Below are positions 11,134 to 47,953 of a stretch of 55,030 bases of DNA, piece by piece (position 1 is the first letter of the stretch; every line of letters starts with the position of its first letter). Under the pieces are notes generated by a model. It ran no database searches and had not been told where the DNA came from. It saw only the letters and a program-made list of their open reading frames with translations. The translations under genes were made by a program, and so were the position numbers. Source of the DNA: Archangiaceae bacterium (GTDB lineage: Bacteria; Myxococcota; Myxococcia; Myxococcales; Myxococcaceae); the NCBI GenBank assembly GCA_043750125.1, contig JAYVCD010000239.1:1-55030 (forward strand). The letters run 5' to 3'.

Positions 11134-12258
11134 TCAGGGAGGAAGTTTTCGGTACCGCTCGTAGATCCAGTCGACGACCCAGCGGGTGATGGCCCGGGCT
11201 CCGGCCGGCGAATAATGAATGCCATCGTCGAGACGAAAGCGATTGAGCCGGCCGTCGGAACCGCGAATGAAGGTGGCGTATTCGCCCGCTGAATCAGAGA
11301 CCAACATCTGCAGCTCGAGAAACTCGACCCCCGGCACCTTCTTCGCCGCCTGAGCGAAGATCGCGTTGAGGTACTGGGCATGGTGCGAAAAGCGTCCGGC
11401 GCGCATCGGCGGAAGCCCCAACCACAAGACCCGCGCCCCGCCCATCGCGAGGGTGCGCATCATTTCCATCACCCGCGCCGAGTAGGCGGTGCGCCACCCC
11501 GCTTCACCGAAGTCCACCGGGCGATCTCCGTCCCGAATGCGGGTGCCATCGTTCGCGCCCAGTGAGCAGACAATCAGCCGGGGGTGTTCGCGTTCCAGCA
11601 ACGGAGCCAGGACCTTCATCCAGTCGTAGACGTCGGGCCGCGAAAGGCCGGTCGCGGTCTGAAATGCGTGGACGACGCGCAGTCGGGAGTCTCGTGCGAG
11701 CGCCCGTGAGACCGCTGCGCCCAGACTGCCGCCGATCATCGAATCGCCCATCAGCAAGACGGTGACCGCGGAATCTTTACTGGGGCTTCCGGGGAGCTTC
11801 GTGCCTTCGACAATCTCGGGCAGCGCTTCGGGCGGGGGCAGGCTCGCTTCCTTCGCGGCTGCAATCGGCGCTGCTTCGCCGGGGTCATCCCACCCCTCTG
11901 CGAGCAAGGGGTCTTCGCTGGCACCGAGCATGCGACCCACCCACGCCCCCGAGCCGACCGCCCACCGACGGGGGCCGGTCAAGCCCAGGTGGTCCATCGC
12001 GGTGTTGATCGGGCCGAGCACTGAACGCCAGGCGCTCTGCACCGGACCGAGATCCATTCTCTGGACCCAGGTGAGCAACCCCTCGGAATCGAACGCCACC
12101 AGCAGGGCCGCGCAGATTCCCAACACCAGCGCGACTTCGCGCAACCGATATTCCCGAACGGCCGGCGCTCCATCTGAGGTTGCGTCCTCGTCATGTGCGG
12201 CGACCGCCCGCGCCAGAGCACTGTGCAGATTCTCGGCGGGCGGAATTGAACCGTTCAT
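11134..12258 (-). CDS. SGNH/GDSL hydrolase-fold O-acetyltransferase (DUF459/PatB-like)
   Basis: ATG 12258 overlaps the MBOAT stop. GDSM, GLSRPD..DW, GANDG and DGIHY catalytic motifs. Confidence 0.85.
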   Translation of the reverse strand: MNGSIPPAENLHSALARAVAAHDEDATSDGAPAVREYRLREVALVLGICAALLVAFDSEGLLTWVQRMDLGPVQSAWRSVLGPINTAMDHLGLTGPRRWAVGSGAWVGRMLGASEDPLLAEGWDDPGEAAPIAAAKEASLPPPEALPEIVEGTKLPGSPSKDSAVTVLLMGDSMIGGSLGAAVSRALARDSRLRVVHAFQTATGLSRPDVYDWMKVLAPLLEREHPRLIVCSLGANDGTRIRDGDRPVDFGEAGWRTAYSARVMEMMRTLAMGGARVLWLGLPPMRAGRFSHHAQYLNAIFAQAAKKVPGVEFLELQMLVSDSAGEYATFIRGSDGRLNRFRLDDGIHYSPAGARAITRWVVDWIYERYRKLPP

Positions 12259-13682
12259 CAGAATTGAAAGTAGATGAAAGGCGCCACGCCCCGCGGGCCC
12301 CACGCGTCGATCAGCAACAGGGCGATTGCGAACACCAGGCCCTGCACGGGAAGAGGAAGGCGCGCAGCCCACTGCAGTGCGGCGCGGCGGCCGGGCAACA
12401 GCTGTCCTCCCAGGCCTGCGGCAATCGCCAGCAGCACCGCGGGGCCCAGAGAGAAGCGGGCACTTGCGGCGAACAGCGCGGCGAGCAAGTCCCCAGCAGA
12501 TCCCAACGAGGTCGAACGGAACAGCACCCAGCCCAGGCAGACGAAATGAAACGTCAACACCGGAGCGGCGACCTTCCACACCCTCAGCGCCCTGAACCCC
12601 TGCACCCACCGGGTGTTCGCTTCCGACCAGACCCGATGCGCGACGAGCCAGGCGCCGTGAAAGAAGCCCCAGGCCACGAAGGTCCAGGCCGCGCCGTGCC
12701 AGAGGCCGCCGAGCAGCATCGTGATCCCGACGGTCAGCGCGGTGCGCACCCGACCGCCGCGGGATCCTCCGAGGGGAATGAAGAGGTAATCGCGCAACCA
12801 GCTCGAGAGTGAGATGTGCCAGCGACGCCAGAAATCACGGGGGCTGTCGGCCCGGTAGGGGGCGTCGAAGTTGACGGGGATTTTGTAGCCGAGCAGCAAC
12901 GCCGAACCGACCGCGATGTCGCTGTATCCGGAAAAATCGCAGTAGATCTGAACCGCGTACCCGTAGATCGCCAACAGCACTTCGAGGCCGGAATGATCTG
13001 CGGGCGACTCGAACACCGGGTCCACCAGGCGGGTCGCCAACAGCTGGGCGATCAACACCTTCTTTCCCAGCCCGACCACGATCATTTCCATCGCCCGCGC
13101 CGCGTCGATCTTCACCGCCGCCCCAGGCGCAGCCAGCTGGGGAAGAAAGACCGAGGCCCGCAGAATGGGACCTGCCACCAGCTGGGGAAAGAAGGCGACG
13201 TAGAGCAGTGAGTCGACCGCGCGTACCTTCACGGGGATCGCCCCCCGAAAGGCGTCGACCATCAACGAGATGGCGTGGAAGACAAAAAACGAAATGCCCA
13301 TCGGAAGAGCGATTTCGGGCAGGTGGGTCGGCCCAAGGTTCAGTCCCAACAGCGCCAGCAACCCCATCAGGTTGGCCGCGGCAAACCCAAGGTACTTGAA
13401 GACGGCCAGGGTCCCGAGGCAGATGACAATTCCACCGGCCAACAACCCGCCGCGAGCGCGCGTCTGACGGGGGTCGAGCACCTGAAGTCCGCGGGCCACG
13501 GTCCCCCCCAGCAGCGCGATGCCGACCAGCAGTGGAACGAAGCGCCAGTCCCAGTACGCGTAGAAGCCGCAGCTGGCGACGACCAGCATCGCTTTGTGCG
13601 CCGCGAGCCAGGGCCGAAGGGTCCAGGCGATCGCAAACACGGCGAGGAAAAAAACGGCGTAGTCGACGGTGGGGAAGAGCAC
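12258..13682 (-). CDS. MBOAT family O-acyltransferase (AlgI/DltB/PatA-like)
   Basis: LPMGISFF, FFPQLVAGPI, DFSGYSD, FWRRWHISLSSWLRDYL, GLWHGA. Confidence 0.93.
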   Translation of the reverse strand: MLFPTVDYAVFFLAVFAIAWTLRPWLAAHKAMLVVASCGFYAYWDWRFVPLLVGIALLGGTVARGLQVLDPRQTRARGGLLAGGIVICLGTLAVFKYLGFAAANLMGLLALLGLNLGPTHLPEIALPMGISFFVFHAISLMVDAFRGAIPVKVRAVDSLLYVAFFPQLVAGPILRASVFLPQLAAPGAAVKIDAARAMEMIVVGLGKKVLIAQLLATRLVDPVFESPADHSGLEVLLAIYGYAVQIYCDFSGYSDIAVGSALLLGYKIPVNFDAPYRADSPRDFWRRWHISLSSWLRDYLFIPLGGSRGGRVRTALTVGITMLLGGLWHGAAWTFVAWGFFHGAWLVAHRVWSEANTRWVQGFRALRVWKVAAPVLTFHFVCLGWVLFRSTSLGSAGDLLAALFAASARFSLGPAVLLAIAAGLGGQLLPGRRAALQWAARLPLPVQGLVFAIALLLIDAWGPRGVAPFIYFQF

Positions 13683-13693
13683 CAGGCAGCAGC

Positions 13694-14674
13694 TTAAGGG
13701 TCGGTTTGCTCTTGCAGGTATTCGCCGACCACGTTGAGCAGCTCATTGAGCGCGACCGGCTTGCGCAGGTAATCGGTGGCGCCCGCTTCGTCCGCCACCT
13801 CGTGCAGCCGTTCGAGCGCAAGCGACGAGACGAACACCACCGGAATGTCCGCCAGCTCTACGTCCGAGCGCATCGTCTTGCAGACGTCCACTCCGTCGAG
13901 GCCCGGCATCAAAATGTCGAGCACCACCAGCTTCGGCTTCAGCTCGCGCACCATCGAGAGCGCCTGGTGCCCATTCTTCGCCTTGTGGACCTCGTAGCCA
14001 TAACGAGAGAGCACCCGGTTGAGGAAGTCGAGGATCGCCGGTTCATCGTCGGCGATCAGCACGGTCGGCTTTCCCGGCCAGGGTTGCCCGGCGAGGCGAT
14101 CGAGCTGGGTGCGAAGGTGCTCGCGGGCCTCCTCGGTGGCGTCCATCCACCTCAGTCCGACCGCGCGGCCATCGAGGTTGTCGCGGGTGACCTCGGCCTT
14201 CAGCTGCACTTTCACCCCGTCGTCCAGCTCGATCTCGACCTCGACCGACTGCCCGGCCATCAGTGGCGCCAGGGTATCGAGCTGGCAACCCGTCTCGGAC
14301 AGGTCGCGCGCGAACGCGGTGTTCGGCAACGGCGGTCGGGTGAGCTTCACCGGCAGGGTGCAGGGCAACCGACGGGTGCGGCGACCGGGCTTGGGCGCTT
14401 CGGTGTGGCTCAAGCCGATGAGCTTTCGCACCCGCTCGATTTCTTCATCTTCGAAGCGGACCCAGACGCCGACTTTGAACAGCTTGCTGTCGCGACGCAG
14501 CCCGACGACCTGCGCGTTGGCGATCAACGCCATTCCGTCGAGGTGGAGCTCGATTGCAGTGAGCTCTCCGAGGCGAGGTCGTTCGACGGTGCCGATGAAG
14601 ATCCGGTCTTTGTTGCCCCGCAGCATCTCGGCCCAGAGTTGGTACTTGTCGCGAAAGTCGAGTCGAAGAGCCAC
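13694..14674 (-). CDS. PilZ-PilZ-REC response regulator
   Basis: Second PilZ has RRTRR and DLSETG motifs. C-terminal REC has IADDE, LDILMP and YLRKP. Confidence 0.82.
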   Translation of the reverse strand: MALRLDFRDKYQLWAEMLRGNKDRIFIGTVERPRLGELTAIELHLDGMALIANAQVVGLRRDSKLFKVGVWVRFEDEEIERVRKLIGLSHTEAPKPGRRTRRLPCTLPVKLTRPPLPNTAFARDLSETGCQLDTLAPLMAGQSVEVEIELDDGVKVQLKAEVTRDNLDGRAVGLRWMDATEEAREHLRTQLDRLAGQPWPGKPTVLIADDEPAILDFLNRVLSRYGYEVHKAKNGHQALSMVRELKPKLVVLDILMPGLDGVDVCKTMRSDVELADIPVVFVSSLALERLHEVADEAGATDYLRKPVALNELLNVVGEYLQEQTDP

Positions 14675-14703
14675 GGTTCGGAAACGCTCTTACCAGATGC
14701 CGG

Positions 14704-15759
14704 TTAGCCCAGCTTGAGCCGTGCGATCACTTCGTCCGCGGCCGCGGTCGTGGACAGGGTCCCGCCGAGGTCCCGAGTCGTCTTCCCGTCGGCGACGGCC
14801 GCCTGAATCGCCGTTTCCAGGGCTTCGGCCGAGCGGGTGTGACCCAGATCGCGAAGCATCAGCGCGCTGGTGAGCAGGCTGGCCACCGGGTTGACGATGC
14901 CCTTCCCGGCGATGTCGGGGGCCGACCCGTGCACCGGCTCGAACAGGGGCGTCGAGGTCGGGTTGAGGTTCGCCGACGCAGCCACGCCCAGCCCGCCGGT
15001 GAGTCCTGCTCCGAGGTCGGTGAGGATGTCGCCGAACAGGTTGGTGGTGACGATGACGTCGAAGTCCTCGGGCTTGATCACCATCTGCATCGCCAGCGCG
15101 TCGACGTAGTAGTGCCGGGCGTCGATTTCCCGATACTCGATCTGAACCTCTTTGAAGGTCCGCAGCCACAGCTCGTGGGCGGCGATCGCGTTGCTCTTTT
15201 CTGCCAGCGCGACCCGTTGCTTTCCGTTTCTCTTCGCCCACTCGAAAGCCGCCCGGATGATCCGTTCGACGCCTTTGCGGGTGTTGATCTCTTCGGCCAC
15301 CGCGATTTCGTCAGCGGTCCCCTTTTTGAAGACCCCACCGATTCCGTTGTACATGCCCTCGGTGTTTTCCCGGAACACGACGAAATCGAGCTCTTTGCGG
15401 CCCTTGCCCTTCAGCGGCGAGAGCCGGTCGTCCAACAGGCGGCAGGGCCGGAAGTTGATGTACAGGTCGAGCCCGAAGCGCAGCCCGAGAAGAATTTCGC
15501 GGGCATGCACCTGGCCGGGGACCCGGGGGTCTCCGACGGCTCCGAACAAGATCGCGTCGAAGTCGTTGCGGAAAATTTCGATCTGTCCGGCGGGCATCGC
15601 CACGCCCGTCTTCAGGTAGCGCTCGGCCCCGAAGTCGAATTGCTCGAACTGCAAGCCCAGCTTGTGGGCCTCGTTGATCAACCCCAGCACACGCACCGAC
15701 TCGGCCGTGACTTCGATGCCGGCCCCGTCTCCGGGGATGACTGCAATCTTGGCGACCAT
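14704..15759 (-). CDS. leuB: 3-isopropylmalate dehydrogenase (isocitrate/isopropylmalate/tartrate dehydrogenase family)
   Basis: IPGDGAGIEV, RENTEG, NLFGDILTDL, FEPVHGSAPDIAGKG. Exact substrate not provable from sequence. Confidence 0.78.
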   Translation of the reverse strand: MVAKIAVIPGDGAGIEVTAESVRVLGLINEAHKLGLQFEQFDFGAERYLKTGVAMPAGQIEIFRNDFDAILFGAVGDPRVPGQVHAREILLGLRFGLDLYINFRPCRLLDDRLSPLKGKGRKELDFVVFRENTEGMYNGIGGVFKKGTADEIAVAEEINTRKGVERIIRAAFEWAKRNGKQRVALAEKSNAIAAHELWLRTFKEVQIEYREIDARHYYVDALAMQMVIKPEDFDVIVTTNLFGDILTDLGAGLTGGLGVAASANLNPTSTPLFEPVHGSAPDIAGKGIVNPVASLLTSALMLRDLGHTRSAEALETAIQAAVADGKTTRDLGGTLSTTAAADEVIARLKLG

Positions 15760-15767
15760 CTGTAGTT

Positions 15768-16835
15768 TCAGCTCCCGTGAAGGGACAGCGGAGGGCGCTC
15801 TTCGCCGGTGAAGACCCGAAGCGCAAGGTACTCGTGGTATCGGCACTGCAGCGTCAGGGTGTCGCCCGGGACAATCTGGGTCGGCCCGGGAGGATGAAGC
15901 GACTCTGTCCCCCCTTGTTTTCGCAGCGAGACCGTCAGCCCGCCGAAGCGATCGCGCACCGCCGAGATGTTGAGCTCGGACAGCTTGGGACCCGCTACGA
16001 AGTGCGAGACGACCAGCAGATGTTCCCCGACCGAGAAGCTGTGGATGATGCGCGGGTCGAGGCTGGTGAGCGCCATCGTCTGGCCCGCGAGCACCGAGGT
16101 CGAGTGGGCCTCGGCGCGAAAATTCTCTCGCACCCGCGCCGCGAGATCTTCATCGAAGAGCCGCATCACGATTCGAATCTCGGGGTTGGCTTTGCGCGCG
16201 TCGAGCCCGACGTTGATGTTGCCGAGGTCATCGTCGGTGCAGCAGACGATCGCCTGGGCATGCTTCACGTTCAGTCGCATCAGCGCCCGGGGGTTGCGCG
16301 CATCGTCGATCAAGACCGGGACGTTGAGGTCCTGCAGCTGGGTCGCGAACGGGGCCCCTTCGTTCTTCTCGATCACCACCACTTCCTTGCCCAGCGCCGT
16401 CAGCTGGTTGGCGATTCGGAAGCCGACCCGCCCTGCTCCACAGACGATGATGTGTCCCCGCATCGATTCGGCGATCACTTCGGTCCACTCCCGGTCAGAG
16501 GTCTTCTTGGCGAAGAACAAGTAGGCAAATCGCACCACCCCGTCGACGACCGCCAACAGTCCGAACGGAGGAATGAGGATGTTGAGCGCTTCGATCGTCG
16601 GGTTGTCGACAAACTCCAGCGAGGGCTGCCCGAAGAGCAGGAAGTAGACGTGACTGAGCGCGCGGCCCCAACCGATCGGGAGCCCGTTGGCGGTCGGGTA
16701 GTTGAAGACGTAGAGCCACGGCAACACGCCGAACAGAATCAGCGCGAACAGGACCGTGATTCGAAAGCGCCGCCCAATGGCGGTGACGTAGCGAAGGCGG
16801 GTGGCCAGCGAACGGCGCTGCGGGCGGAGCTCCAT
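15768..16835 (-). CDS. TrkA/RCK NAD-binding potassium channel protein
   Basis: Two TM segments, then HIIVCGAGRVG (TrkA_N) and a TrkA_C-like tail. Confidence 0.85.
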   Translation of the reverse strand: MELRPQRRSLATRLRYVTAIGRRFRITVLFALILFGVLPWLYVFNYPTANGLPIGWGRALSHVYFLLFGQPSLEFVDNPTIEALNILIPPFGLLAVVDGVVRFAYLFFAKKTSDREWTEVIAESMRGHIIVCGAGRVGFRIANQLTALGKEVVVIEKNEGAPFATQLQDLNVPVLIDDARNPRALMRLNVKHAQAIVCCTDDDLGNINVGLDARKANPEIRIVMRLFDEDLAARVRENFRAEAHSTSVLAGQTMALTSLDPRIIHSFSVGEHLLVVSHFVAGPKLSELNISAVRDRFGGLTVSLRKQGGTESLHPPGPTQIVPGDTLTLQCRYHEYLALRVFTGEERPPLSLHGS

Positions 16836-16884
16836 CGGGCAGCGACGTTGACTACCACACCCGGTGGGCGTGGCCGTCGAGACT

Positions 16885-18285
16885 TCACTTCACCAAAAAG
16901 AGGCCCTTGAGGTCTTCGGTCAGGCTGATCGGGTTGCCCGCATTGCCGAGCGCAGTCGCCCGCCACTGGTAGATCAGGCCCGGCTTCAAGGGGACCAGGC
17001 CCCCGTACGCGACCGCGATGTTTCCCGCCGCGTTCTTCACATCGAGCACCGCGGGGTTTCCCCAGACCTTCACCCCCGACGAGCTGAACACCACCAGGTC
17101 ATAGGTCTTCGCGCTCGAGTACGGCTTCCAGGTGAACGTCGGGGTGCCGGCGATTTCTTCGATCGTGTCGGACGCGCCCGGAGACACCGTCTCGATCGCG
17201 CCGGTCACTTTGAAGGACGGGTTGACGCTTGCCACCCCGTTGGAAACGGTGACGTGGGCCAGCTGGGTGCCCGAAATGTTCGGGTCGGGATCCCGGACGT
17301 TGCCGTCGTTTTCAAACGCGGCAAGCACCACGTACTTTCCGTCGGGGATGCCGCTGATGCTGTAGCTGCCAGTCAGGGTGGGGCCGCCGGTCTCGGGCGC
17401 GCGCAGTCCGGAGACCAAATCTCCTCGCGCGAGCACTTCGATGAAGGTGCTCTCGATCGCCATCACCACGCTGGTCCCCGCTCCATTGGCGCCCCCGACC
17501 AGGCTCACCGAGCCCGTCATCGTCGCGGTCGAAACGGTGCTCTTCTTCAGGGCCACGCCGGTGGTGTCCGAGCCGGCGACGGCGATCACGTCGACCGCGG
17601 TGAAGTTGCTGCCCTTGCTGTAGGCCTGTGCCTTGTACGAACCGGGCGCCACGTTGAAGAGGTGGAAGGCCCCGGCGCCATCGGTGGGGGTCGAGTAGGT
17701 CCTGGCCCCCTCGAGCACGACCAGCGCCGACTGACCCGTGGCCAGCTCGACGGTTCCGCTGACTCCTTTGTTTCCTTTTTCCGCGTCCGACAGCGCGGCG
17801 AGCGCGAGGTCAGTCAGGCTGTTGGCGAGGATCAGCGGCTTGCCCTCGGCCTGGGCCTTCGCGGTGCTGGTGTCGATCGGAAGCGAATTGCGAACCCCCG
17901 AGGGGAAGGCCTGAAAATCCTGGGCCGCCGCGCGCAACATCACCGTACGGAAAATGGGTGTCCCCTTGTCATCACTGCGCTCGGTTTCGACCCGCAGCGA
18001 CCAGGCCCCGGCGGAATCCGAGTGAGCGATGGCCCCGGCGGGAACCCCGTTCACGTCGACCGCAGAGACTTCCGCGCCTGAGATCGGCGTCGTCGCCCCG
18101 AGCACCTTCACCGTGCCCTGCAGCATCAGCGGCTGGAAGCAGTACGGGTTGCCCTTGTCCTTCACCCGCTCGCACACCAACCCATTGGTGCAGGTCGTGG
18201 GGTCGGTCAGCTTGCAGGTCTGCGGACCAGATGGAGTGCAGCCTGCGAACGCGAGCAGCGCGGCGAGGATCGAGCTGAATTTCAT
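16885..18285 (-). CDS. Lipoprotein with carboxypeptidase-regulatory-like beta-sandwich repeats
   Basis: Lipobox LAFAGC, Cys-rich N-terminus, and TDGAGAFHLFNVAPGSY / YSISGIPDGKY repeats. Confidence 0.75.
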   Translation of the reverse strand: MKFSSILAALLAFAGCTPSGPQTCKLTDPTTCTNGLVCERVKDKGNPYCFQPLMLQGTVKVLGATTPISGAEVSAVDVNGVPAGAIAHSDSAGAWSLRVETERSDDKGTPIFRTVMLRAAAQDFQAFPSGVRNSLPIDTSTAKAQAEGKPLILANSLTDLALAALSDAEKGNKGVSGTVELATGQSALVVLEGARTYSTPTDGAGAFHLFNVAPGSYKAQAYSKGSNFTAVDVIAVAGSDTTGVALKKSTVSTATMTGSVSLVGGANGAGTSVVMAIESTFIEVLARGDLVSGLRAPETGGPTLTGSYSISGIPDGKYVVLAAFENDGNVRDPDPNISGTQLAHVTVSNGVASVNPSFKVTGAIETVSPGASDTIEEIAGTPTFTWKPYSSAKTYDLVVFSSSGVKVWGNPAVLDVKNAAGNIAVAYGGLVPLKPGLIYQWRATALGNAGNPISLTEDLKGLFLVK

Positions 18286-37340: not shown

Positions 37341-38318
37341 TCAGCCCGTGAGCGCCATTTCCATCTGAACGGCCTGGGTGACGGCGCGGGCGAAGACTCC
37401 GACCTTGTTGAGCTCGAGGGCGAGCTCCTTGGCAAAGCCGTGGTGGGTGATGACTTCCCGTGCGCGGCTGCCCTTGGCGATCTTCACCAGGGCGGCAAAG
37501 TCGGCGTGGTCGGAAATTGGAAACGCCACGTCGGCGGCGTAGCGGCGCGCGGCCCAGGGCTCGATCGCCCAGCCGGTGAGCACCGCTGTGGCCCTTGGCA
37601 TCACTTTCTTCATCGCCTGCGATCGACCAAAGGGAGGGAAGATTCCGACCTCTCCTTCCTCGAAGGTGCCGTCGAAGAGGCGGACGTCGATCGGCATTCC
37701 GAGCTCGGTGTAGAGCATCGAGATGTCGTAGATCGCTTTGTGAGCGCACAGCTTCAACCCGCGGGAAGTCAGCTGCTTGATGGCTTCCTGCCCCTTGCCC
37801 AGGGAATAGGCGTAGAGAATGGGACGGACTCCGCGGGCCAGGTGGGCTCGGGCCCAGGCGGCGACTTCGTTGAACACTTCGTCGCGTTTGGGGAACTTGA
37901 AGCGGGGGTGCCCGAAGGTCGATTCGAGGACCAGGGTGTCGCATTCAGCAATCTGGGTGGCCTCGGCGGTCATCGAGGATTCGAGGCTGATGTCGCCGGT
38001 GTAGACGATGCGATGGCCGTCTTCGCGGGTGACGCGAATCTGCGCGCTGCCCAACACGTGGCCGGCCGGAAGCAGCTCGACGTTGAGTCGGCCCAGCTCG
38101 AAGGGGCGGTGGTACGGGGCGGGAAGCGCCGATTTGATTGGCCCGAGGCGGTGCTCCATGAAACGCAGTGTCGCGCGGGTGGCGATGACGCGCTCGTGGC
38201 GGGCGATGTGATCGCTGTGGGCGTGAGAGACGAAGCTCAGCTCTGACTTGCGACGGGCGTCGAAGGACAGAGGCGACCCGGTCAGATGCAGGCCGCCGCG
38301 ACGAAGCTCTACAGGCAC
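37341..38318 (-). CDS. MBL-fold/beta-CASP nuclease
   Basis: SHAHSDH, AGHVLGS, YTGD, ESTFG, SDHAD. Confidence 0.9.
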   Translation of the reverse strand: MPVELRRGGLHLTGSPLSFDARRKSELSFVSHAHSDHIARHERVIATRATLRFMEHRLGPIKSALPAPYHRPFELGRLNVELLPAGHVLGSAQIRVTREDGHRIVYTGDISLESSMTAEATQIAECDTLVLESTFGHPRFKFPKRDEVFNEVAAWARAHLARGVRPILYAYSLGKGQEAIKQLTSRGLKLCAHKAIYDISMLYTELGMPIDVRLFDGTFEEGEVGIFPPFGRSQAMKKVMPRATAVLTGWAIEPWAARRYAADVAFPISDHADFAALVKIAKGSRAREVITHHGFAKELALELNKVGVFARAVTQAVQMEMALTG

Positions 38319-40325: not shown

Positions 40326-41282
40326 CTACCAGCGTCGTTTCCCCATTGGGAGCGCAAAGGTCTTGGGTGGCCCGTTGTTCAAGGGGCTTGATGTCGAGCT
40401 GCCGACAAAGTTCGCACGACAAGCGTCGCCCGCACGGGCTCCGCGGTTGTATCGGGTCGCGCTGCGAGGCCACGCAGGGAGGCCAAACGCTTCAACCGCG
40501 GCGACGAAGCCGGATTGTGACGGCTGAATCTCCGCGCCCAATGGCTTGAGCCCACGGTCCTCGGCCTCCCGCAACAACCGGTCGAGCATCACCAGCTCGA
40601 GCCCGAGCCCCTGCGCGCGGCGCTGGAGAAAGGCGTGGCGGACGATGTTGTCCGCGGTGAGGCATGCGCAACCGACGATCTGGCCCTGGCGTTTGGCACC
40701 GACGACGACGCCATGGTGGATCAAGGATTCGAGCGCGTCTCCGCTGAGCGTTTGCCAGCGCGATAGGGCGATCGCGAACTGTTTGAGATTGTCCGGGCCG
40801 AGCACGTCGATCTCGACCGGGCCGAGCAGTTGGCGAAGACGGGCGGTGGATTCGGACGCGAGCGCACTAACCAGGGCGGCGTGAATGGTGCGGATTCGAG
40901 GCGAGTGGGCCGCGCGGCTCCAGACACGCTGGAATCCGAAGAGGGCGAAGCGGGCGGGGCGGGGCAATGGAATGACGGTCGACCCCCGGCGGACGGCGAC
41001 CGCGCGAGCCAGGACTTCGAGCCCCGGAAGATCTGGAGTTCCCGCAAATGACTCGGTGACCACCGGGTTGGTCGCGACGACGAGGTGGCCGATTAGAGCT
41101 CCGTCCGAACGCAACATCACCGCGATGTCTCCCTTCTTCAGCGCTGCCTGGGAACAACGAATGACCTTCAACGATTCTCCGCCGCGCAGCACGGGGCGCA
41201 TGCTGCTGCCTCGAACGCCGACCCACATCAGCTTGCCCTCGGGCTGGCCCTTCAGCACCGCACCGAGAACCTCGGACGTCAC
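40326..41282 (-). CDS. S24/S26 (signal-peptidase-like) peptidase fused to a GNAT-like domain
   Basis: GTG 41282 overlaps the kinase stop (GTGA). VRGSSMRP..GD/GE..GDI..IGHLVV peptidase core. C-terminal IVGC...FLQRRAQGLG resembles acetyl-CoA motif A. Confidence 0.7.
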   Translation of the reverse strand: MTSEVLGAVLKGQPEGKLMWVGVRGSSMRPVLRGGESLKVIRCSQAALKKGDIAVMLRSDGALIGHLVVATNPVVTESFAGTPDLPGLEVLARAVAVRRGSTVIPLPRPARFALFGFQRVWSRAAHSPRIRTIHAALVSALASESTARLRQLLGPVEIDVLGPDNLKQFAIALSRWQTLSGDALESLIHHGVVVGAKRQGQIVGCACLTADNIVRHAFLQRRAQGLGLELVMLDRLLREAEDRGLKPLGAEIQPSQSGFVAAVEAFGLPAWPRSATRYNRGARAGDACRANFVGSSTSSPLNNGPPKTFALPMGKRRW

Positions 41283-42070
41283 TTGGAAACCCACTCGCGG
41301 AGGAAAGGACCGACGGCGGGGTCTTTGCGGAAGGTGAGCTTGTGGACCCCGACCGCGTCGACGGCCGCCATCACCCGGCGGGTGACTTCGCCACGAGGCA
41401 CGATGTCGATGACTGAGGTGAAGATCTGGCTCAGCAGCTTGGGCATCGCTGCTGCGGGTTCCAGAGGGGTGAGCGCCTCGTGGTCTCCCTTCTCGAGCAG
41501 CAGCAAGGACTTCAGTTTCGTAGGTCCTGGGGAGCCGATGTTTTCGAGGTTGGACCGGAACGGAGTGCCCCAGCAGGTTCCGTCTGGGAAGAGTTGAATG
41601 ATTTCGTCGGTGAGGAGTTTGGCGTGGCCGGGATGGCCGGAGGACAACGCCGCGAGGGTGGATTTGCCGGCCGTGCTTTCACCGATCGCGGCGACTCCGT
41701 GCTCGCCCCAGGTGAAGGCGCAGCCGTGCATCAGGACTCCGCCTTGGCGGAGAGTTTCTATTTGATAGGCAATGCGAAGAATTGATTCCGCAGCCCAGAC
41801 GTCGTTGGGGATATGTGCGTAGAGCCGGTCGCTCTCGAGTGAGAAGTCGCCCCAAGGGGCCAAGCAGTCTTCGAGAACTCTCGATCGTGGCCGCGCTTGC
41901 GCGACCCGTTCAATGGTCAAAGTCGCGGCCTTCCTGGCGGCAAAAGGTCTGCAATCAACCCGCGCAGAGGCAAGGCCGACCAGGTCACCGCAATCGATCA
42001 CCCCACTGCCGCAAACAACAGCTGCCTCATAATCAGAGCAAGCCGCCACTGGTTCGGGTCTGAATTCCAA
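41279..42070 (-). CDS. HPr kinase-related P-loop kinase
   Basis: GVLMHGC (HprK His), Walker A GESTAGKST, LLTDE acidic pair, GTPF. Start uncertain. Confidence 0.8.
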   Translation of the reverse strand: MEFRPEPVAACSDYEAAVVCGSGVIDCGDLVGLASARVDCRPFAARKAATLTIERVAQARPRSRVLEDCLAPWGDFSLESDRLYAHIPNDVWAAESILRIAYQIETLRQGGVLMHGCAFTWGEHGVAAIGESTAGKSTLAALSSGHPGHAKLLTDEIIQLFPDGTCWGTPFRSNLENIGSPGPTKLKSLLLLEKGDHEALTPLEPAAAMPKLLSQIFTSVIDIVPRGEVTRRVMAAVDAVGVHKLTFRKDPAVGPFLREWVSK

Positions 42071-42091
42071 AACTTTAATAGTCGTAAGCCA

Positions 42092-42241
42092 CTAGCACCC
42101 CGGAGGACCACACGTCAGGCCTGAAGAGCAAAGAACTGTAGGAGGTTGGCAGGGACTGAGGGCCAGGAGCTGATTTGGCCCGTCGATCAACACGCTCAGG
42201 ATGGCAGGGGGTTTCCACGTACGCCGAGGACGATGGTTCAC
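42092..42241 (-). CDS. Putative RiPP-type precursor peptide (49 aa, WxxP leader, Cys-rich core)
   Basis: Hand translation: MNHRPRRTWKPPAILSVLIDGPNQLLALSPCQPPTVLCSSGLTCGPPGC*. GTG overlaps the upstream TGA (GTGA). Lies among RRE, kinase and peptidase genes. Confidence 0.72.
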   Translation of the reverse strand: MNHRPRRTWKPPAILSVLIDGPNQLLALSPCQPPTVLCSSGLTCGPPGC

Positions 42242-45200
42242 GGCGGGTTCCATACAGTCACCTTTCCATTTCCGTCGAGAAAATCACCCGCTGCGATATC
42301 GCGCTTTCCGTCGCCATTGAAATCACCGGATGACATGCGAGTTCCGAGGCCGCTCGTTCCCGGAATCGTGCTGAGCTTGGCCTGCCAAAATCCAACGCCT
42401 GCGACAGTATCGAACTCCATTCCTGCCAAACGTCTGTTCTTGAACACCCAGATGTTTGCCGAGGTGGAAAACCCATGGCTGACGACCAAATCTGTTCCAG
42501 ATCCTGGAGCCAAATCGAGCGCCAGAACGTCGCTACCAAAAAACGACGAAGGAGGACCCGTGATCGTTGTCGATTCGCCCGGAAACAGAGCACCGGTCCG
42601 ATCGGTGTGAATCATGACCCGATTGCCAGTCGCCCAGGACACGATCAAATCCAAAGCGCTTCCACCTGTGACATTCACACCGCCAATGACTCGCACCCCA
42701 TAACCCGACTGTGATGCGGGCGCGTGAGTCGGCTTTGCAAACGATTGAAGGGAATCGTCGGGGATGCCCGCGTCAATTCCGCCGGTGGTGAATACTGTCC
42801 CTGCGTCTGCAGCTGACACGACGCTTCCGCCAAAGATGAAGATCCGATTCGCCGACTCGAGTGAGGCCGGAATGACAAAATCGGACGGCCCGGAAGTCCC
42901 GAGGCGACCCAGGTTCGCGAAGCCGCCCGGCGCGCTCCCGAAGCCGTTACCGGCTGCGGGCGAAGGCAAAGGGCCCATGAAGTTGCGATCGGCGCTCGAC
43001 ATCGGGATCGGCTGGGGGAGCGCCTTCCAAGCGGCTTCACTGCGGCCGTAGAACAAATAGACACGGCCGCGATTGGAATTTTCGTTGTCTCCCGCGAGGA
43101 AGATGTCGTCGATTCCATCTCCGTCTAGATCGCGGACAATTTGAGCTGAACGTCCAAGCTGACTCGCGGCGTTTCCGGCAAAGACCACGTAGTCCGCAGC
43201 CGTCGTGCCGAGCTGCGGCTGATTCCGTCCAAAAAACAACAGCGCCCGTCCTGCTGACATGTTTGCAGTGGGCGAGCCGACAAGAAGATCCTTCTTCGTA
43301 GAACCGGTCCCATCGTCCGCAGCATTTCCAACCGAGCAGTCGGCTCCGAAGGCACCGAGTACCGAGTCCGGAGGCTGAATTTCCTGGGGAGCCGCATTGC
43401 CAAAACTCGACCCGCCGTAATAGACAAAGACCCGATCAGCAGCTTGTGCACTCACGACAAGATCGTCCACTGCATCGCTGTTGAGACTTCCGTTCGCAGC
43501 CGTAACGAATCCAAAAAGTTTGCCAGCTCCACTCGTCGGCGCAGCAAGACTGTAAATGTTCCAAGGGTTATTCACGGTCTGTCCTGCTCCAGCCGGCACA
43601 AAGGCAGAGTAGTTCCCCACTTCATCCCGCGCTCTCACGTAGTACCGCGTGGTGACGAGCGGAGGCGTCAATACATCTCGACTGATGGTCGCTGACGACC
43701 ACGCCGAAGTGGAATCCGCATAAGCCATTGCAGAATTGAAGAAGTCGTCCGACGAGCCCAGTCCCGCGCTGACAACAGACGTAGTCCAACGCACGTCGTA
43801 GTACCCGCCATTCGGCCCTGGCACCAAACCACCCGACGCAGCACTGTTGCCGTCGTCGTAGACCGGGCCCCAGGTCAGGTTGATGATCGCCTCACGCTCC
43901 TTCCCGGCGAACAGCGTCGCCAGAACAACCGGAGCCGCAGGCGCAACGACATCCACAATTGCGCTCGACGTCTGATCAACGACGTTCCCAGCAGCATCCG
44001 AGACGCGAATGGTCAGCGGTCCGGTGGAGTTCTGGCTCAGAGTCACGGGAAGGGTAACCGATTCCGAGGCGGTCACGATGTTCACCGGGCCGGAGACCGT
44101 GACACCTTGGTACAAAACAGACACCCGACCCCCGGCAGCTCCGGCGGCATTCAAGCTCACGACGAACTGAGCGCCCGCCTTGCTTTCGTCGGTGTCCACG
44201 ATGAAGCCTGGAGTCGCGGGCGGACGAAGGAAGTAGTTTCCCGGCGCCACGAAGGTGAAATTCGCGCCCGCAGGCGAAACCGCGGTCACGACCGGATCCG
44301 TGAGGTCAACGGTGACGACAACGGCGCGCGCGGTGGCGCCGCCACTGTTCATTTCGGCGGTCAGCGTCAGAACGCCCTCAGGCAGGGAAACGGGGAAGCT
44401 GAAGCCACCCGTCCCACCCGTCATCGCAGGAGAACCCGGTAGCTCCGTCTTTCCCGCCCCAGTGCCGGTGAAGAAACGAATCGGCTGACTGGCGCAATTG
44501 GTACTCCCAGCCAAAGTGTATTCCAGCGTGGCTGCGGTCGCAGGAGTCGCGTCGTTGCTCTTGTTCAAGAAGGCCGGATTTCCCGTGGGCGAAGCAAAAG
44601 TGATGCTGCAGCCTGGCGCGTTCACCACGATGACTTGAGTGGTCGAGCAGGTATTGCCCGCTGCATCCGTTACTGACGCGCGGACAGTCTGAGTCCCGCT
44701 CGGAAAGGTAATCGTCTTCTGTGCCGTCCCGGCAGCGACAGTCATCTGGTCCTGTTGAGCTTCTGCGGCTGCTCCAACCTGAGAGAACACCCGGGCGATC
44801 AAGCCATTGCCATTCGTGACCGAGACATTGGTCGGAATGTCGTACGTGGCGTAGTCCCCACCCGATCCCGTCCCTCCTCCAGCGACCGGGGAAATCAAAG
44901 TGCAACCCGGAGCGACGAGATCCACCAGCACCTGCATGGTGGGGTTGGGCGTCACGTTGACGTTGCCCGCGCGATCTCGCACCTGGCAAGTCACGGTGTA
45001 GTTCGTCTCGCCCGTACCGGCGACGGTGAAGTCCTCAGTCGCGACGCCCCCGGACGGAGTCGGAGTCTTCACATCAGCCGCCGCACCTCCCGTCAGCGTC
45101 AGAGTCGCCCCAGCCGCCTGAACGTCGGCCGACACGGCAACCGAAGCGGTGACTTGATAGCCAGACAATGCGCCATCAGCGTCATCCGCCGTCCCGAGCG

Positions 45201-47577
45201 CAGCCTTGTTGGGAAGAATGAAGCTGCAGGTGGGACGAATTCGGTCTACCCGCAGACTGGTGATTGCTGCACTGTTGAGAGGATCATTGGCGGTCGGGTT
45301 GGCCACGATGTTGGTGTTGCCAACCGCGTCCTGCACCACCACAACCAGGCTGAAGTCCGCTTCGGTTGCGGAACCTGCGGCGAGCCCCGGCAGTGGAACG
45401 GTGGCCGCATTGTTTACGACAGTGACCGCCGTCGCAGGACTCACGGCCGTACCGGTTGAAAGTCGGACCAAGAGGGTCTGACCATTCTCCACACCCGAAG
45501 TCGTGATCAACGCAACGGGATCTCCACTCGCCTGCTCGCTCAGGTTGAGGATTCCGTCGGCGTTCGCGTCGCCCTGGAATGTCACGCCGACGACCGTCGG
45601 TCGGACCGTATCAACGACGATTGGGACGTACGAGGATGCGGCCGTTCCGCCCCCAGCAAAAACAAACACGACCTTCAACTGATACGCACCCTCGGGATAG
45701 TTGAAGGTGTTGGTGCTCTGAGGAACGTTGTTCGCGAGGACAAATCCGACGCCATCGGGACAAGCCATTGAGCCCGCCACGACCTGAGTCGCAGTACAAA
45801 CGGTTGCGCTGGCGCCCGCGGGAAGTGTGGGTTGGTACAACAACGTGTACTGCCCCCCTGCGACGGCACGCTGCAAATCCAACGCGGCAGTGACCTTGAA
45901 GTTCGCGATCGGAAAGGTCAGTGACGGGGACTGAAGGTTGACAATGATTGTCACCGTCGTCTTCGTGACATTCCCTACGCCATCATCAATCTGCGCTTCG
46001 AAATTCACCGAGGCCGGCGCGGTCTCAGGAATCACAAAATTCGGAGACCGATACACGCCCGCGCCATCGGTCACCCCGCTCAGGGTCTGCGGCGCAACGC
46101 CGGCATTGTTCACCGCACGAATGCTGACGCTCTTCCCTGCACACGCCGAGGTCGTAGTGACCTCGAGCGCATAGCTCAGCGTCGCCGCTCCAGGCGTCGA
46201 GTTGTTCGACTGAGTCAGCGTGACCGGGTTGGCCGACGGCCGCGAGAACGTGAGCGGGCAACCCACCGCGGCGACCGTGATGTCCTGCGTCACTGGCGCG
46301 GACACATTCCCCAGCGCGTCCGTCGCCACGGCGCTCACCGTCTGGGCACCATTCTGAAACGACCCCAGCCCGGTGGCATTGTTCGCCACGACCGCGAGCA
46401 CTCCGAGATCGCGCTTCACTCCCGCGAGGGTGGTGCTGAATTGAACGCTGACGGCTCCACCGGTCGTCGTTGCGGTCAGAGGAATATTGAAGGTCGAGTA
46501 CGGGCTGCCTGCCATCGTGGGGGAAGTAATCGCCAGGGTCGGTGCCTCGAAATCGACAGTGATCGGAGTGGTCGCAGTGCAGACATTCCCGCTGCTGTCC
46601 GTTGCTTCGACTGTAAATGTATAAACCTGGGTCCCACTGGCCGGAACCAGGAAGTCAGCCACGAACGCCGCACCCGTAAACGACTTCGACCCCGTGCTTT
46701 CTGGAGTCGAAATTTTGAGCGCGATGAACTTCGCTTTTGCGCTGGCATTGCCCGTCGCCCGCACCTGGTAGCCCGCGACGGTGGTGTTCGCGTCGTCGTT
46801 GGGACCGACGAGCGCCTTCTCGGTCGTGACCAAGCAGGTGGGAAGCGTGCGGTCCACCGCGATCATCTTCACCGCGTCCGGGTTGCCGGTCTGCGAATTG
46901 CTCAGTGAGCCATGGGTCACCTTGGCAAACAACGAATACGCGCCATCCGCGAGCGCGGCCGCCGGCACCTGCACCGTCACCGCTGAATTGGCAATCGCCG
47001 ACGACGCGAGCACCGTGTTGTTCGCGGTGTTGAGAATCTGCACCGTTCCCCCAATCGCTCCCTGGGTGACCAGCTCAATCCGCAGGTCCGAAGCAGTCGG
47101 CAGCTCAATGCTGTTCAACACGCCCGTCGGCATCGCGGTGTCTTGTGGATACGCAAACGTCACGACCTTCGGCGGGTCATTGGTGACGGGGACTTCGACC
47201 TCAATCGACTTGGTCCCGGTGCACGCGGTGCCCTTCTTCTTCACCGTGACTTTGAGGACGTTCTTACCCGGCTCGAGGGTGACGGCGACAAACGTCGCTT
47301 TCCCCGCCTCGAGGGTGCCGTCGCGGGGCACGGTGAAGCCCGTCCCCGAGCTGGGGCGCGAGACCAACTGGGCGCTGTCGAGCTCAATCAAACCGCCCGC
47401 GCTGTTGGCAACCTTGATGGTCACATCGACCGTGGAAGGGACGGCGGTCATCCCGTCTTTGGGAGCCTCGAAGGTGACGAAGAGGTCTTCGCATTCCGAG
47501 GGGCCGGGGCACGAACAGCCGCCCGCAATCGCCATCACACCCAGTACGCACCACAGCCTCGTCATGTTCGCTCGCAT
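42238..47577 (-). CDS. Giant surface lipoprotein with bacterial Ig-like repeats and C-terminal FG-GAP (integrin-alpha-like) propeller
   Basis: AGGTGAGG upstream of ATG 47577, lipobox IAGGC, many TDAAGN...VD..AP Ig-type repeats, FG-GAP motifs (DLDGDGIDD, GDFNGDGKRD, RVFVYYG). Confidence 0.82.
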   Translation of the reverse strand: MRANMTRLWCVLGVMAIAGGCSCPGPSECEDLFVTFEAPKDGMTAVPSTVDVTIKVANSAGGLIELDSAQLVSRPSSGTGFTVPRDGTLEAGKATFVAVTLEPGKNVLKVTVKKKGTACTGTKSIEVEVPVTNDPPKVVTFAYPQDTAMPTGVLNSIELPTASDLRIELVTQGAIGGTVQILNTANNTVLASSAIANSAVTVQVPAAALADGAYSLFAKVTHGSLSNSQTGNPDAVKMIAVDRTLPTCLVTTEKALVGPNDDANTTVAGYQVRATGNASAKAKFIALKISTPESTGSKSFTGAAFVADFLVPASGTQVYTFTVEATDSSGNVCTATTPITVDFEAPTLAITSPTMAGSPYSTFNIPLTATTTGGAVSVQFSTTLAGVKRDLGVLAVVANNATGLGSFQNGAQTVSAVATDALGNVSAPVTQDITVAAVGCPLTFSRPSANPVTLTQSNNSTPGAATLSYALEVTTTSACAGKSVSIRAVNNAGVAPQTLSGVTDGAGVYRSPNFVIPETAPASVNFEAQIDDGVGNVTKTTVTIIVNLQSPSLTFPIANFKVTAALDLQRAVAGGQYTLLYQPTLPAGASATVCTATQVVAGSMACPDGVGFVLANNVPQSTNTFNYPEGAYQLKVVFVFAGGGTAASSYVPIVVDTVRPTVVGVTFQGDANADGILNLSEQASGDPVALITTSGVENGQTLLVRLSTGTAVSPATAVTVVNNAATVPLPGLAAGSATEADFSLVVVVQDAVGNTNIVANPTANDPLNSAAITSLRVDRIRPTCSFILPNKAALGTADDADGALSGYQVTASVAVSADVQAAGATLTLTGGAAADVKTPTPSGGVATEDFTVAGTGETNYTVTCQVRDRAGNVNVTPNPTMQVLVDLVAPGCTLISPVAGGGTGSGGDYATYDIPTNVSVTNGNGLIARVFSQVGAAAEAQQDQMTVAAGTAQKTITFPSGTQTVRASVTDAAGNTCSTTQVIVVNAPGCSITFASPTGNPAFLNKSNDATPATAATLEYTLAGSTNCASQPIRFFTGTGAGKTELPGSPAMTGGTGGFSFPVSLPEGVLTLTAEMNSGGATARAVVVTVDLTDPVVTAVSPAGANFTFVAPGNYFLRPPATPGFIVDTDESKAGAQFVVSLNAAGAAGGRVSVLYQGVTVSGPVNIVTASESVTLPVTLSQNSTGPLTIRVSDAAGNVVDQTSSAIVDVVAPAAPVVLATLFAGKEREAIINLTWGPVYDDGNSAASGGLVPGPNGGYYDVRWTTSVVSAGLGSSDDFFNSAMAYADSTSAWSSATISRDVLTPPLVTTRYYVRARDEVGNYSAFVPAGAGQTVNNPWNIYSLAAPTSGAGKLFGFVTAANGSLNSDAVDDLVVSAQAADRVFVYYGGSSFGNAAPQEIQPPDSVLGAFGADCSVGNAADDGTGSTKKDLLVGSPTANMSAGRALLFFGRNQPQLGTTAADYVVFAGNAASQLGRSAQIVRDLDGDGIDDIFLAGDNENSNRGRVYLFYGRSEAAWKALPQPIPMSSADRNFMGPLPSPAAGNGFGSAPGGFANLGRLGTSGPSDFVIPASLESANRIFIFGGSVVSAADAGTVFTTGGIDAGIPDDSLQSFAKPTHAPASQSGYGVRVIGGVNVTGGSALDLIVSWATGNRVMIHTDRTGALFPGESTTITGPPSSFFGSDVLALDLAPGSGTDLVVSHGFSTSANIWVFKNRRLAGMEFDTVAGVGFWQAKLSTIPGTSGLGTRMSSGDFNGDGKRDIAAGDFLDGNGKVTVWNPP

Positions 47578-47641
47578 CGATGCCTCACCTGCAGAGCCGC
47601 GCATGGTGGCTCTGCTGAGTACCGCCCTCGCCGCTCCCCAT

Positions 47642-47953
47642 TCAGTCCGGGGACAGCACCTTCTTTTGAACCAGGATCTCTATGAATTGAACCGTCTGCT
47701 GCTCGCACTCGGCCTGCTCGACTTCGAACTCGCTCTGAAGCACCGCGGCGATTTCCCCCACCGTACGGTTGCCATCCACCAACGAAATGATCCGTTCGCC
47801 CACTTCTGACACTTCCCCCTCGGCTTCGAAGGTGTGGAGCGCGTCATCAGGCGTTGCCGCCATCCACCGTCCCTTGACCTGCTGTACACCCGTTTCCGGA
47901 TGTACCCGAGGCACCCAATTCAGCCATTGATGAAAGGTGCGCCCAGTCGTCAT
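47642..47953 (-). CDS. Stand-alone PqqD family protein / RiPP recognition element (RRE)
   Basis: 103 aa: SEVGERIISLVDGNRTVGEIAAVLQSEFEVEQAECEQQTVQFIEILVQKKVL, the PqqD helical signature. Confidence 0.88.
   Translation of the reverse strand: MTTGRTFHQWLNWVPRVHPETGVQQVKGRWMAATPDDALHTFEAEGEVSEVGERIISLVDGNRTVGEIAAVLQSEFEVEQAECEQQTVQFIEILVQKKVLSPD

Follow-up and report, generated by a model that had tools for sequence, protein, structure and literature searches.

In the lasso-peptide cluster of Bradymonas, as set out in its published description (PMC10368454), a recognition element (RRE) for peptides that are synthesised ribosomally and modified after translation (RiPPs), BsfB1, accelerates the action of the HprK-like kinase BsfK on Ser3 of the core and also aids the leader peptidase; the YxxPxL motif of the leader spans positions -17 to -12. 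Maturation of another kind is seen for QhpC, the γ subunit of quinohemoprotein amine dehydrogenase, which its source (PMC7876137) presents as a leader-bearing, Cys-rich peptide: enzymes of its operon modify it in the cytoplasm, a serine protease dedicated to it takes off the leader, and it is then built as a subunit into a periplasmic complex encoded with it. Here we describe a locus from an Archangiaceae bacterium (Myxococcota; assembly GCA_043750125.1), carried by a 55,030-nucleotide stretch of DNA, contig JAYVCD010000239.1 (C239), that is referred to below as the window. Its five genes encode a PqqD-type RRE, a giant lipoprotein (the adhesin), a small peptide, an HprK-like putative kinase and an S24-like peptidase fused to a GNAT domain. 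On balance, and with somewhat better than an even chance of being right, we read it as a leader-guided, RiPP-type peptide maturation system built around a surface protein.

All five open reading frames (ORFs), checked by translation, are on the minus strand, arranged head to tail and placed at or close to the positions first assigned to them, so that the co-orientation reported in a preliminary description of this DNA is borne out. The small ORF has the attributes of a RiPP precursor, being a short reading frame with a conserved leader and a variable core that lies beside genes for recognition and processing. It had been described as encoding 49 residues from a GTG codon at 42241 that overlaps the TGA of the adhesin gene; the ORF and the overlap are present, but the orthologues favour the ATG at 42253 and a product of 53 residues. 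This ATG lies 16 nucleotides inside the adhesin gene, behind GGAAAGGTG, and a Shine-Dalgarno-like tetramer is found 7–16 nucleotides upstream of the peptide start in 14 of 19 loci.

The position of the small ORF is conserved to a striking degree. Twenty loci were fetched around homologues of the kinase, and in all 18 that hold RRE, adhesin and kinase genes a small ORF starts at or inside the adhesin stop, frameshifted in one case (L033). The other two, both from genus g22, contain the kinase without its companions, and CtaB, RRE, adhesin, peptide and EamA are found elsewhere in the same genomes. Twenty further loci were taken around RRE orthologues of other genera; 16 of these reach the 3' end of the adhesin gene, and the ORF is present in 16/16. 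The total, which includes the window and locus L006, comes to 38 loci from 38 genomes, and in 37 of them an intact ORF of the peptide family overlaps or directly follows the adhesin stop. The preliminary description had named as a check whether homologous loci keep a small ORF with WxxP/YxxP next to an adhesin gene; this check was passed, with 37 intact examples and one frameshifted. In that single exception (L033:10393-10600, minus strand) the leader lies in one frame and the Cys-rich core in another, which reflects either a frameshift or an assembly error in a metagenome-assembled genome (MAG).

Could the small ORF be a chance open frame in GC-rich DNA? Its third-position GC content is 0.61, low and not gene-like for this genome, no gene had been called there, the exact sequence of the window peptide is absent from the protein collection searched, and a tblastn search of 20 loci with the window peptide recovered no orthologue. 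The tblastn failure is explained by the divergence of the family, which is too great for pairwise search; the orthologues were found by position and motif, and then by a profile. When this profile was built without the window sequence, the window ORF ranked first of 975 six-frame ORFs, with an E-value of 4e-7, the next being 0.024. The same position, the same frame relation to the adhesin stop and the same leader motif recur in 37/38 loci, and some orthologues are annotated as genes ('hypothetical protein') in the records of Stigmatella aurantiaca, Archangium violaceum and A. lipolyticum. There is next to no chance that the frame is fortuitous, and we conclude that the small ORF is a real gene.

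An alignment of 19 orthologues shows that the N-terminal half of the peptide is conserved. Basic residues precede the sequence [YW]xxPx[VIL]x[ST], which is followed at a constant distance by a hydrophobic pair, often as PxL[LF]. The leader motif proper, [KR][KR]x[YW]xxPx[VIL], is lasso-like, and its [YW]xxPx[VIL] part reads W13-K-P-P16-A-I18 in the window; the core behind it is hypervariable. The motif [YW]xxPx[VILMF] is present in 36 of the 37 intact peptides, that of L094 having Thr at the last position, and the spacing between motif and hydrophobic pair is constant in 37/37. Both motif and spacing match the lasso motif YxxPxL at -17 to -12. The core boundary was accordingly set by the spacing rule of lasso leaders, with the Tyr or Trp at -17 (PMC10368454). 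This places the cut directly after the hydrophobic pair and leaves predicted cores of 13–36 residues with little sequence conservation.

After the predicted cut the number of Cys residues is even in 37/37 peptides: there are none in 2, two in 11, four in 12, six in 10 and eight in 2. An even number suggests pairing, in the simplest case through disulfides, and with it an extracytoplasmic life. The peptides of L036 and L090 have one Cys in the leader and attain an even count only after the assumed cut, which lends mild support to the core boundary. Two peptides (L084:4046-4252 and L101:3666-3953) keep the leader motif and have a core without Cys; genome G259, which carries L084 and is rated 100% complete, lacks a kinase match.

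The PqqD protein is a solid RRE. It matches the Pfam family PqqD (PF05402) with an E-value of 1.9e-10 and 41.4 bits, against a cut-off of 23.4, and is recovered at 41.5 bits in a scan of the whole genome with the same profile; it also matches NCBIfam lasso_PqqD_Bac (E 3.2e-8), under the cut-off of that model. Mean column identity over 19 orthologues is 58%, so that the RRE is far better conserved than the peptide core. A model of the complex between RRE and peptide, each supplied as a 19-row alignment, gave an ipSAE of 0.62, compared with 0.02 for the best of three controls; of 80 solved complexes 58 attain the ipSAE mark that we apply, as do 2 of 110 mismatched pairs. Between runs at least 92% of the contacts are shared, and the partner has a predicted local distance difference test score (pLDDT) of at least 52. 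In the modelled interface RRE residues 37–44, 49–52, 74–78 and 86–97 contact peptide residues 10–24, which are the conserved leader motif. An RRE holds the leader of a co-encoded precursor along its β3 strand and helix 3; the modelled contacts that bear on this are those of residues 37–44 and 86–97. The RRE is thus predicted to bind exactly the conserved leader motif, and leader binding, which had been inferred at the outset, finds support in silico from this complex model.

The likeness of leader and RRE to those of lasso pathways raises the question whether the locus belongs to a lasso pathway whose B2 protease and cyclase are encoded elsewhere in the genome. A YxxPx[VIL] leader, a split B1-like RRE and an HprK-like kinase do occur in lasso clusters (PMC10368454), and the lasso_PqqD_Bac match points the same way. 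Profile scans of contig C239 found no match to Radical_SAM, Asn_synthase, ABC_tran or Transglut_core3 (the scans did not extend to YcaO, LanM or nucleotidyltransferase profiles); this agrees with the earlier statement that lasso cyclase, radical SAM enzyme and ABC exporter are absent from the window. Over the whole genome, Transglut_core3 (PF13471) has no match above its cut-off of 26 bits, the best being 22 bits on another contig, and the best match to Asn_synthase (PF00733) beyond C239 is a partial one at a contig end; as the genome is 89% complete, these absences are not proof. With the cut at -17, moreover, the first residue of the window core is not a small one and none at positions 7–9 is acidic. 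We therefore rejected a lasso pathway, for want of B2 and cyclase matches and of a core that fits the ring rules, and regard it as very improbable.

Identification of the kinase rests on fold and conserved residues. The window protein has no Pfam match, PF07475 included, in a Pfam set that did not contain PF27840, and it matches NCBIfam HprK_rel_B weakly (E 0.01, 15 bits against a cut-off of 200). Its AlphaFold2 model, from an alignment with 49 relatives, has a pLDDT of 95.5, and Foldseek relates it to ATP-dependent PEPCK (E 1.7e-6, query TM-score (TMq) 0.52) and to HprK/P (E 1.0e-3 to 1.6e-3). The fold is PEPCK-like, and the P-loop GxSxxGK[ST] is present as G130-E-S-T-A-G-K-S-T138; His115, Ser132, Gly135, Lys136, Thr138, Asp155 and Glu156 are invariant or nearly so among 49 sequences. 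At E<0.01 HprK_rel_A matches 36/49 members of the family, HprK_rel_B 38/49 and ScmC 5/49, all under curated cut-offs, with best E-values of 1.4e-9, 7.5e-7 and 2.8e-12 respectively. TIGR00679 is matched by one of the 49 (E 0.006), and PF07475 is found in two relatives with E-values of 0.037 and 0.047 (14 bits, the cut-off being 33.3). Among the Atlas clusters, the nearest ones bear PF27840, ScmC (Pfam 38.1), which is precomputed on many homologues and not on the row identical to the window protein. As modelled, the protein belongs to the PEPCK/HprK fold and groups with ScmC and HprK-related proteins; its kinase activity is putative.

The peptidase, likewise, is recognised from its structure. 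Its scores for S24 (PF00717; E 0.0064, 16.6 bits against 23.3) and for the archaeal-type signal peptidase model TIGR02228 (E 0.032, 14.1 against 51.85) are both under the cut-offs. The 322-residue product of the whole ORF (40326–41294) was modelled with a pLDDT of 84 as an N-terminal β domain and a GNAT domain. Foldseek matches the former to the C-domain of LexA (6a2t, E 7.6e-4, target TM-score (TMt) 0.70) and to UmuD' (1ay9). The serine motif G-x-S-M-x-P is present as G29-S-S31-M-R-P34, and Gly29, Ser31 and Pro34 are invariant in 16 aligned sequences, comprising 15 separate ORFs and the C-terminal half of a fusion described below. His70 and Asp88 are also invariant and no Lys is, so that the active site looks like Ser/His(/Asp) and not like the Ser/Lys of LexA; at the strand position where a Ser/Lys dyad would have its Lys, all 16 orthologues have His70. 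A Ser/His set of this kind presumably resembles that of endoplasmic reticulum (ER)- or archaeal-type S26 enzymes. No membrane anchor is evident in sequence or model.

The GNAT domain is matched by Foldseek to 4lua and 6bvc (E 6.8e-4) and falls just under the cut-off for Acetyltransf_1 (E 0.0019, 18.9 bits against 20.7); its acetyl-CoA loop, R/Q-x-x-G-x-G/A, reads R-A-Q-G-L-G. The folds proposed for kinase and peptidase-GNAT in the preliminary description were therefore recovered, and of the profile searches that it called for, that for PqqD succeeded whereas those for kinase, S24 and GNAT stayed under their cut-offs. N-acylation, which it included as a step, does not hold throughout: of the 16 aligned peptidases 5 have a truncated GNAT half, and this half is missing from the stand-alone peptidases of five genomes and from the type-2 peptidase of a paralogous module, both described below. 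The GNAT domain is an accessory and does not belong to the core of the system. Residues 278–322 of the ORF, predicted to be disordered, are probably read-through of a lost stop and not part of the functional protein; a peptidase orthologue from the same genus ends at residue 270, and the ORF of the downstream Na/Ca exchanger starts at 40357.

In no locus seen are RRE, adhesin and peptide separated, and the adhesin lies between the other two. The remaining genes are less constant. The order RRE, adhesin, peptide, kinase, peptidase is found in 13 of the first 20 loci; in two the peptidase precedes the kinase, in three the kinase is 2–4 kb off, next to MBL and PanD-like genes and with no peptidase in the vicinity, and in two the kinase is alone. 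The five genomes whose locus lacks a peptidase in this way were checked, and all of them encode a stand-alone S24 domain of about 140 residues, without GNAT, elsewhere (E 1e-34 to 1e-40). The minimal five-gene cluster proposed earlier is therefore too narrow a description: three genes are always linked, and kinase and peptidase may sit elsewhere. The two enzymes can also be joined, as in L032:9566-11206 (plus strand), where kinase and S24-GNAT peptidase share one frame of 546 residues with no internal stop in a complete 9-Mb genome. A displaced kinase gene that neighbours an MBL-fold gene and a small PanD-like gene (Asp_decarbox) belongs to the arrangement seen at L045:9218-9643, L049:9108-9485, L043 (~10450-10800) and L041 (~11630-12000); the window has an MBL gene (37341–38318) and no PanD-like match. 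In L034 a Cys-rich ORF with GGATAGG repeats is inserted between peptide and peptidase.

Within the family, an RRE orthologue occurs as a single copy in 92 of 176 genomes and in 35 of 51 sampled genera; none was found in three well-sampled genera (0/16, 0/13 and 0/8 genomes). As we read the tables, 77 family genomes match the kinase at E<1e-20, and 71 of these are also in the RRE list; two of five others that were checked have the RRE.

The same plan recurs beyond this locus. The window genome has only two PqqD genes, and the second, on contig C353, heads a paralogous module (L058:13218-18151, minus strand): PqqD (17828–18151), a 169-residue lipoprotein-like ORF, a secreted protein of 1042 residues with a PQQ_2-like β-propeller end (14197–17325), a small ORF (YxxP leader, four Cys) that starts 8 nucleotides after the propeller-gene stop, and an HprK/ScmC-like kinase paralogue (13218–13922). 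In other genera modules of this type have in front a 143-residue S24 Ser/His peptidase without GNAT, and the ATG of the peptide overlaps the TGA of the propeller gene (ATGA); their plan is S24 peptidase, RRE, lipoprotein of ~170 residues, propeller protein of ~1040 residues, peptide, kinase. In L060 and L062, from other families of the phylum, an RRE and a giant Ig/FG-GAP protein are found with peptide and kinase. A third kinase paralogue of the window genome (L058:5720-6439, plus strand) follows not a propeller protein but a long Cys/Gly-rich lipoprotein-like ORF (~L058:4150-5700), which the Cys-rich insert of L034 resembles. In a distant family, L078:6188-11645 holds PqqD, a radical SAM enzyme, a YxxP/Cys peptide, a kinase homologue and a Peptidase_C25 protein of 1035 residues. 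A motif scan upstream of 20 distant kinase homologues found no peptide in 10 (L059, L061, L063–L067, L072, L074, L077). A single-protein search for related loci returned four: two Myxococcales MAGs and two Acidobacteriota contigs with a kinase-PqqD pair. In the latter (MAG contigs L081 and L082) distant kinase homologues of 30% identity are followed directly by a PqqD gene, and the motif scan found no YxxP peptide upstream.

The variable placement of the enzymes bears on another explanation, that the small protein is an unmodified partner, chaperone or regulator of the adhesin, merely held by PqqD, with kinase and peptidase acting elsewhere or inactive. Scans for Transglut_core3, Radical_SAM and Asn_synthase revealed no class-defining crosslinking enzyme, kinase and peptidase are unlinked in three genera, and three genomes have the RRE and no kinase match, all of which would fit. 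Yet residues of catalytic type are invariant in both kinase and peptidase, the two enzymes are fused in L032, the same five functions recur in the paralogous module, and ScmC/HprK-related proteins regularly lie beside PqqD proteins and peptides. We consider an unmodified partner distinctly unlikely.

The adhesin consists of arrays of Ig-like domains and a C-terminal FG-GAP β-propeller region, with FG-GAP (E 2e-11), FG-GAP_3, Big_13 and Big_3_2 all above Pfam cut-offs; its N-terminus shows, by eye, a lipobox-like ...IAGGC, and its C-terminal ~1200 residues are the best conserved part. A fusion of RRE and adhesin, suggested by open frames of 1933–1998 residues, was ruled out by a stop between the genes in L032 and L045. 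The preliminary suggestion that the product works with the surface protein has gained weight from the start of the peptide gene inside the adhesin stop, from the even Cys numbers and from the paralogous module, and is still one that we infer. We would place the product at the surface with the propeller protein because the peptide gene starts at or inside the propeller-gene stop in both paralogous families, the linkage of RRE, adhesin and peptide is unbroken and the Cys number is even. Tentatively, and with considerable doubt, we suggest that the matured peptide, with its Cys paired as disulfides, could be dedicated to the propeller of the surface protein whose gene it overlaps, as a ligand, a small subunit or an insert akin to a cofactor, rather than be a free natural product.

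The obvious competitor is an ordinary diffusible RiPP, an antibiotic or a signal, with the adhesin in the operon for unrelated reasons or only as receptor or immunity protein. Bacteriocin-like RiPPs typically have such a conserved leader followed by a hypervariable core rich in Cys, and there are related kinase-peptide pairs without a giant propeller protein, as in L078. Such a product would leave unaccounted for the start of the peptide gene inside or next to the propeller-gene stop in both paralogous families, and the fact that the peptide remains with the adhesin when the enzymes move away; the conserved set also has neither exporter nor immunity gene, and the locus lies in conserved housekeeping synteny and not on a mobile island. 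We regard a diffusible product as unlikely.

If the locus is a surface-directed maturation system, it may operate as follows. The 53-residue peptide would be translated by ribosomes that have just completed the giant lipoprotein, since the final codons of the adhesin gene contain its ATG. The stand-alone PqqD protein would bind the leader motif, residues 10–24, and present the bound peptide to kinase and peptidase, with a division of labour like that in the Bradymonas cluster. The ScmC-like kinase would phosphorylate Ser or Thr at one of two candidate sites, the conserved Ser/Thr that the leader has seven residues beyond its Tyr/Trp or a Ser/Thr adjoining the first Cys of the core. The soluble S24-like peptidase, with Ser31, His70 and Asp88, would take the place of B2 and remove the leader of ~29 residues after the hydrophobic pair, and proteins that have the GNAT domain may add an N-acetyl group to the product as an optional step. 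The released core of 13–36 residues and 0–8 Cys would most likely be disulfide-paired outside the cytoplasm, where it may act with the β-propeller end of the co-produced lipoprotein as ligand or small subunit.

Several observations weigh against this proposal. Its weakest point is that the conserved set has no exporter and the peptide no signal sequence, which leaves an extracytoplasmic fate unexplained. The Pfam and NCBIfam scores of kinase, peptidase and GNAT are all under curated cut-offs, and the success of the complex model may reflect likeness to RRE-leader complexes already solved, and hence is not proof of binding. The Cys parity hinges on the assumed cut, the whole-peptide count being odd in L036 and L090, and the peptides of L084 and L101 have no Cys at all. 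Kinase and RRE do not always occur together: G259, complete as it is, G234 and G268 have the RRE and no kinase match at E<=1e-10, and G258, G353, G390 and G315 have the kinase and no RRE match, most of these exceptions being fragmented assemblies. Finally, the genomes counted are kin and not independent trials, so that the counts, that for Cys parity included, overstate the independent support.

The features of the locus are listed in the table below. The gap between the small ORF and the kinase gene is 21 nucleotides; the overlap claimed between the kinase stop and the GTG of the peptidase is present as GTGA at 41282–41279, and an earlier GTG at 41294 is also open. Upstream lie the genes for a UbiA-type CtaB and for CtaA, and downstream Na_Ca_ex, EamA and MBL-fold genes; in the loci around kinase homologues the CtaA/CtaB and Na_Ca_ex/EamA flanks are syntenic across the family. 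Third-position GC is 0.61–0.77 in the five genes and 0.79–0.90 in their neighbours, which suggested a horizontally acquired island; this was ruled out, as the synteny of the locus with its housekeeping flanks holds throughout the family. A scan for promoters and terminators was no richer than shuffled sequence (0 promoters; 10 terminator-like elements against 9.7 expected) and is uninformative on operon structure.

Features of the locus in the window, in nucleotide positions of the 55,030-nucleotide stretch
Feature	Position	Strand	Basis or remark
PqqD/RRE protein, 103 residues	47642..47953	-	PF05402 over cut-off
Giant lipoprotein (adhesin), 1788 residues	42238..47604	-	Start alternatively at 47577, as first described
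Precursor peptide gene, 53 residues from ATG 42253	42092..42253	-	Alignment of 19 orthologues and profile
Leader segment, peptide residues 10–24, RRTWKPPAILSVLID	42182..42226	-	Conserved columns and complex-model interface
Predicted core, peptide residues 30–53, 4 Cys, plus stop codon	42092..42166	-	Boundary inferred from W13 at -17
PEPCK/HprK-fold P-loop protein, 263 residues, putative peptide kinase	41279..42070	-	Walker A residues 130–138, nucleotides 41657–41683
S24/LexA-like peptidase domain, residues ~1–110	40965..41294	-	Ser31 41202–41204, His70 41085–41087, Asp88 41031–41033
GNAT-like domain, residues ~160–275, fused to peptidase, accessory	40470..40817	-	Foldseek GNAT matches
C-terminal tail of peptidase ORF, residues 278–322	40326..40463	-	pLDDT <50; overlaps start of Na/Ca exchanger

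If our reading is correct, the locus represents a RiPP-type pathway with an enzyme set not used elsewhere, an ScmC/HprK-like kinase and a Ser/His S24-like leader peptidase with no cyclase or radical SAM enzyme. If, further, the more tentative reading of the peptide as a dedicated partner of the propeller holds, Myxococcota would build a two-part cell-surface device by means of an RRE-guided kinase/peptidase line. Hypervariable cores could then give strain-specific recognition, for example in the discrimination of kin, prey or substrate. We have found no earlier case of a giant adhesin gene that contains the start of a precursor gene at one end and has the RRE gene beyond the other, and the paralogous module and the more distant variants across the phylum indicate that the system is not rare. 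It offers a handle on the role of the widespread cassettes of PqqD and HprK-related kinase and on how social, predatory myxobacteria diversify surface recognition, and the cultured carriers Stigmatella aurantiaca, Archangium violaceum and A. lipolyticum make the predictions directly testable.

The gene set is not described in the full-text literature searched (most subscription journals and supplements lie outside its coverage), which accords with the initial statement that no characterised pathway with this combination was known to its author. Closest are the phosphorylated lasso pathways (BsfA/BsfB1/BsfK/BsfB2 of Bradymonas sediminis, and the ThcoK and paeninodin-type kinases). According to the source (PMC10368454), these share with the locus a stand-alone PqqD-type RRE, a leader with YxxPx[L/V/I] some 17 residues before the core, and an HprK-like P-loop kinase for a leader-bearing precursor, an activity that is predicted here. 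They differ in that the locus has no transglutaminase-like B2 protease, Asn-synthetase-like cyclase or ABC exporter; instead there are an S24-like Ser/His peptidase, Cys-paired cores that lie outside the lasso ring rules, and a precursor coupled to the gene of a giant surface protein.

The same or a close kinase family is found in the SynChlorMet (ScmC, PF27840, TIGR04249), GeoRSP (HprK_rel_B, TIGR04355) and HPr-rel-A (TIGR04352) cassettes, which we take from the model descriptions to be defined with radical SAM/SPASM enzymes; no experimental paper on any of the three was found in the literature searched. A kinase paired with PqqD and a small peptide is likewise seen in L078, L081 and L082. 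The locus differs from these cassettes in having no radical SAM enzyme on the contig and, in its place, an S24-like peptidase and a giant propeller lipoprotein.

QhpC is a precedent in kind for the maturation of a peptide and its assembly with a co-encoded protein; the radical SAM crosslinks, subtilisin-like protease and ABC transporter QhpF that its description names (PMC7876137) have no counterpart at the locus. The adhesin, unlike the complex that QhpC joins, has no evident enzyme function. QhpB, we presume, is a β-propeller. In Bacillus subtilis SipW, a signal peptidase of ER/archaeal type, is encoded beside its matrix-protein substrates TapA and TasA; the likeness here is a Ser/His-type peptidase of the S24/S26 clan co-encoded with a surface or matrix protein, together with the weak TIGR02228 match. 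Against SipW, the peptidase of the locus has no evident membrane anchor and its likely substrate is the RRE-bound peptide and not a Sec signal peptide. The RRE, the HprK-related kinase and the RiPP logic are thus known parts; new to us are an S24-type peptidase in such a role, the lack of a crosslinking enzyme and a giant surface protein to which the system is coupled.

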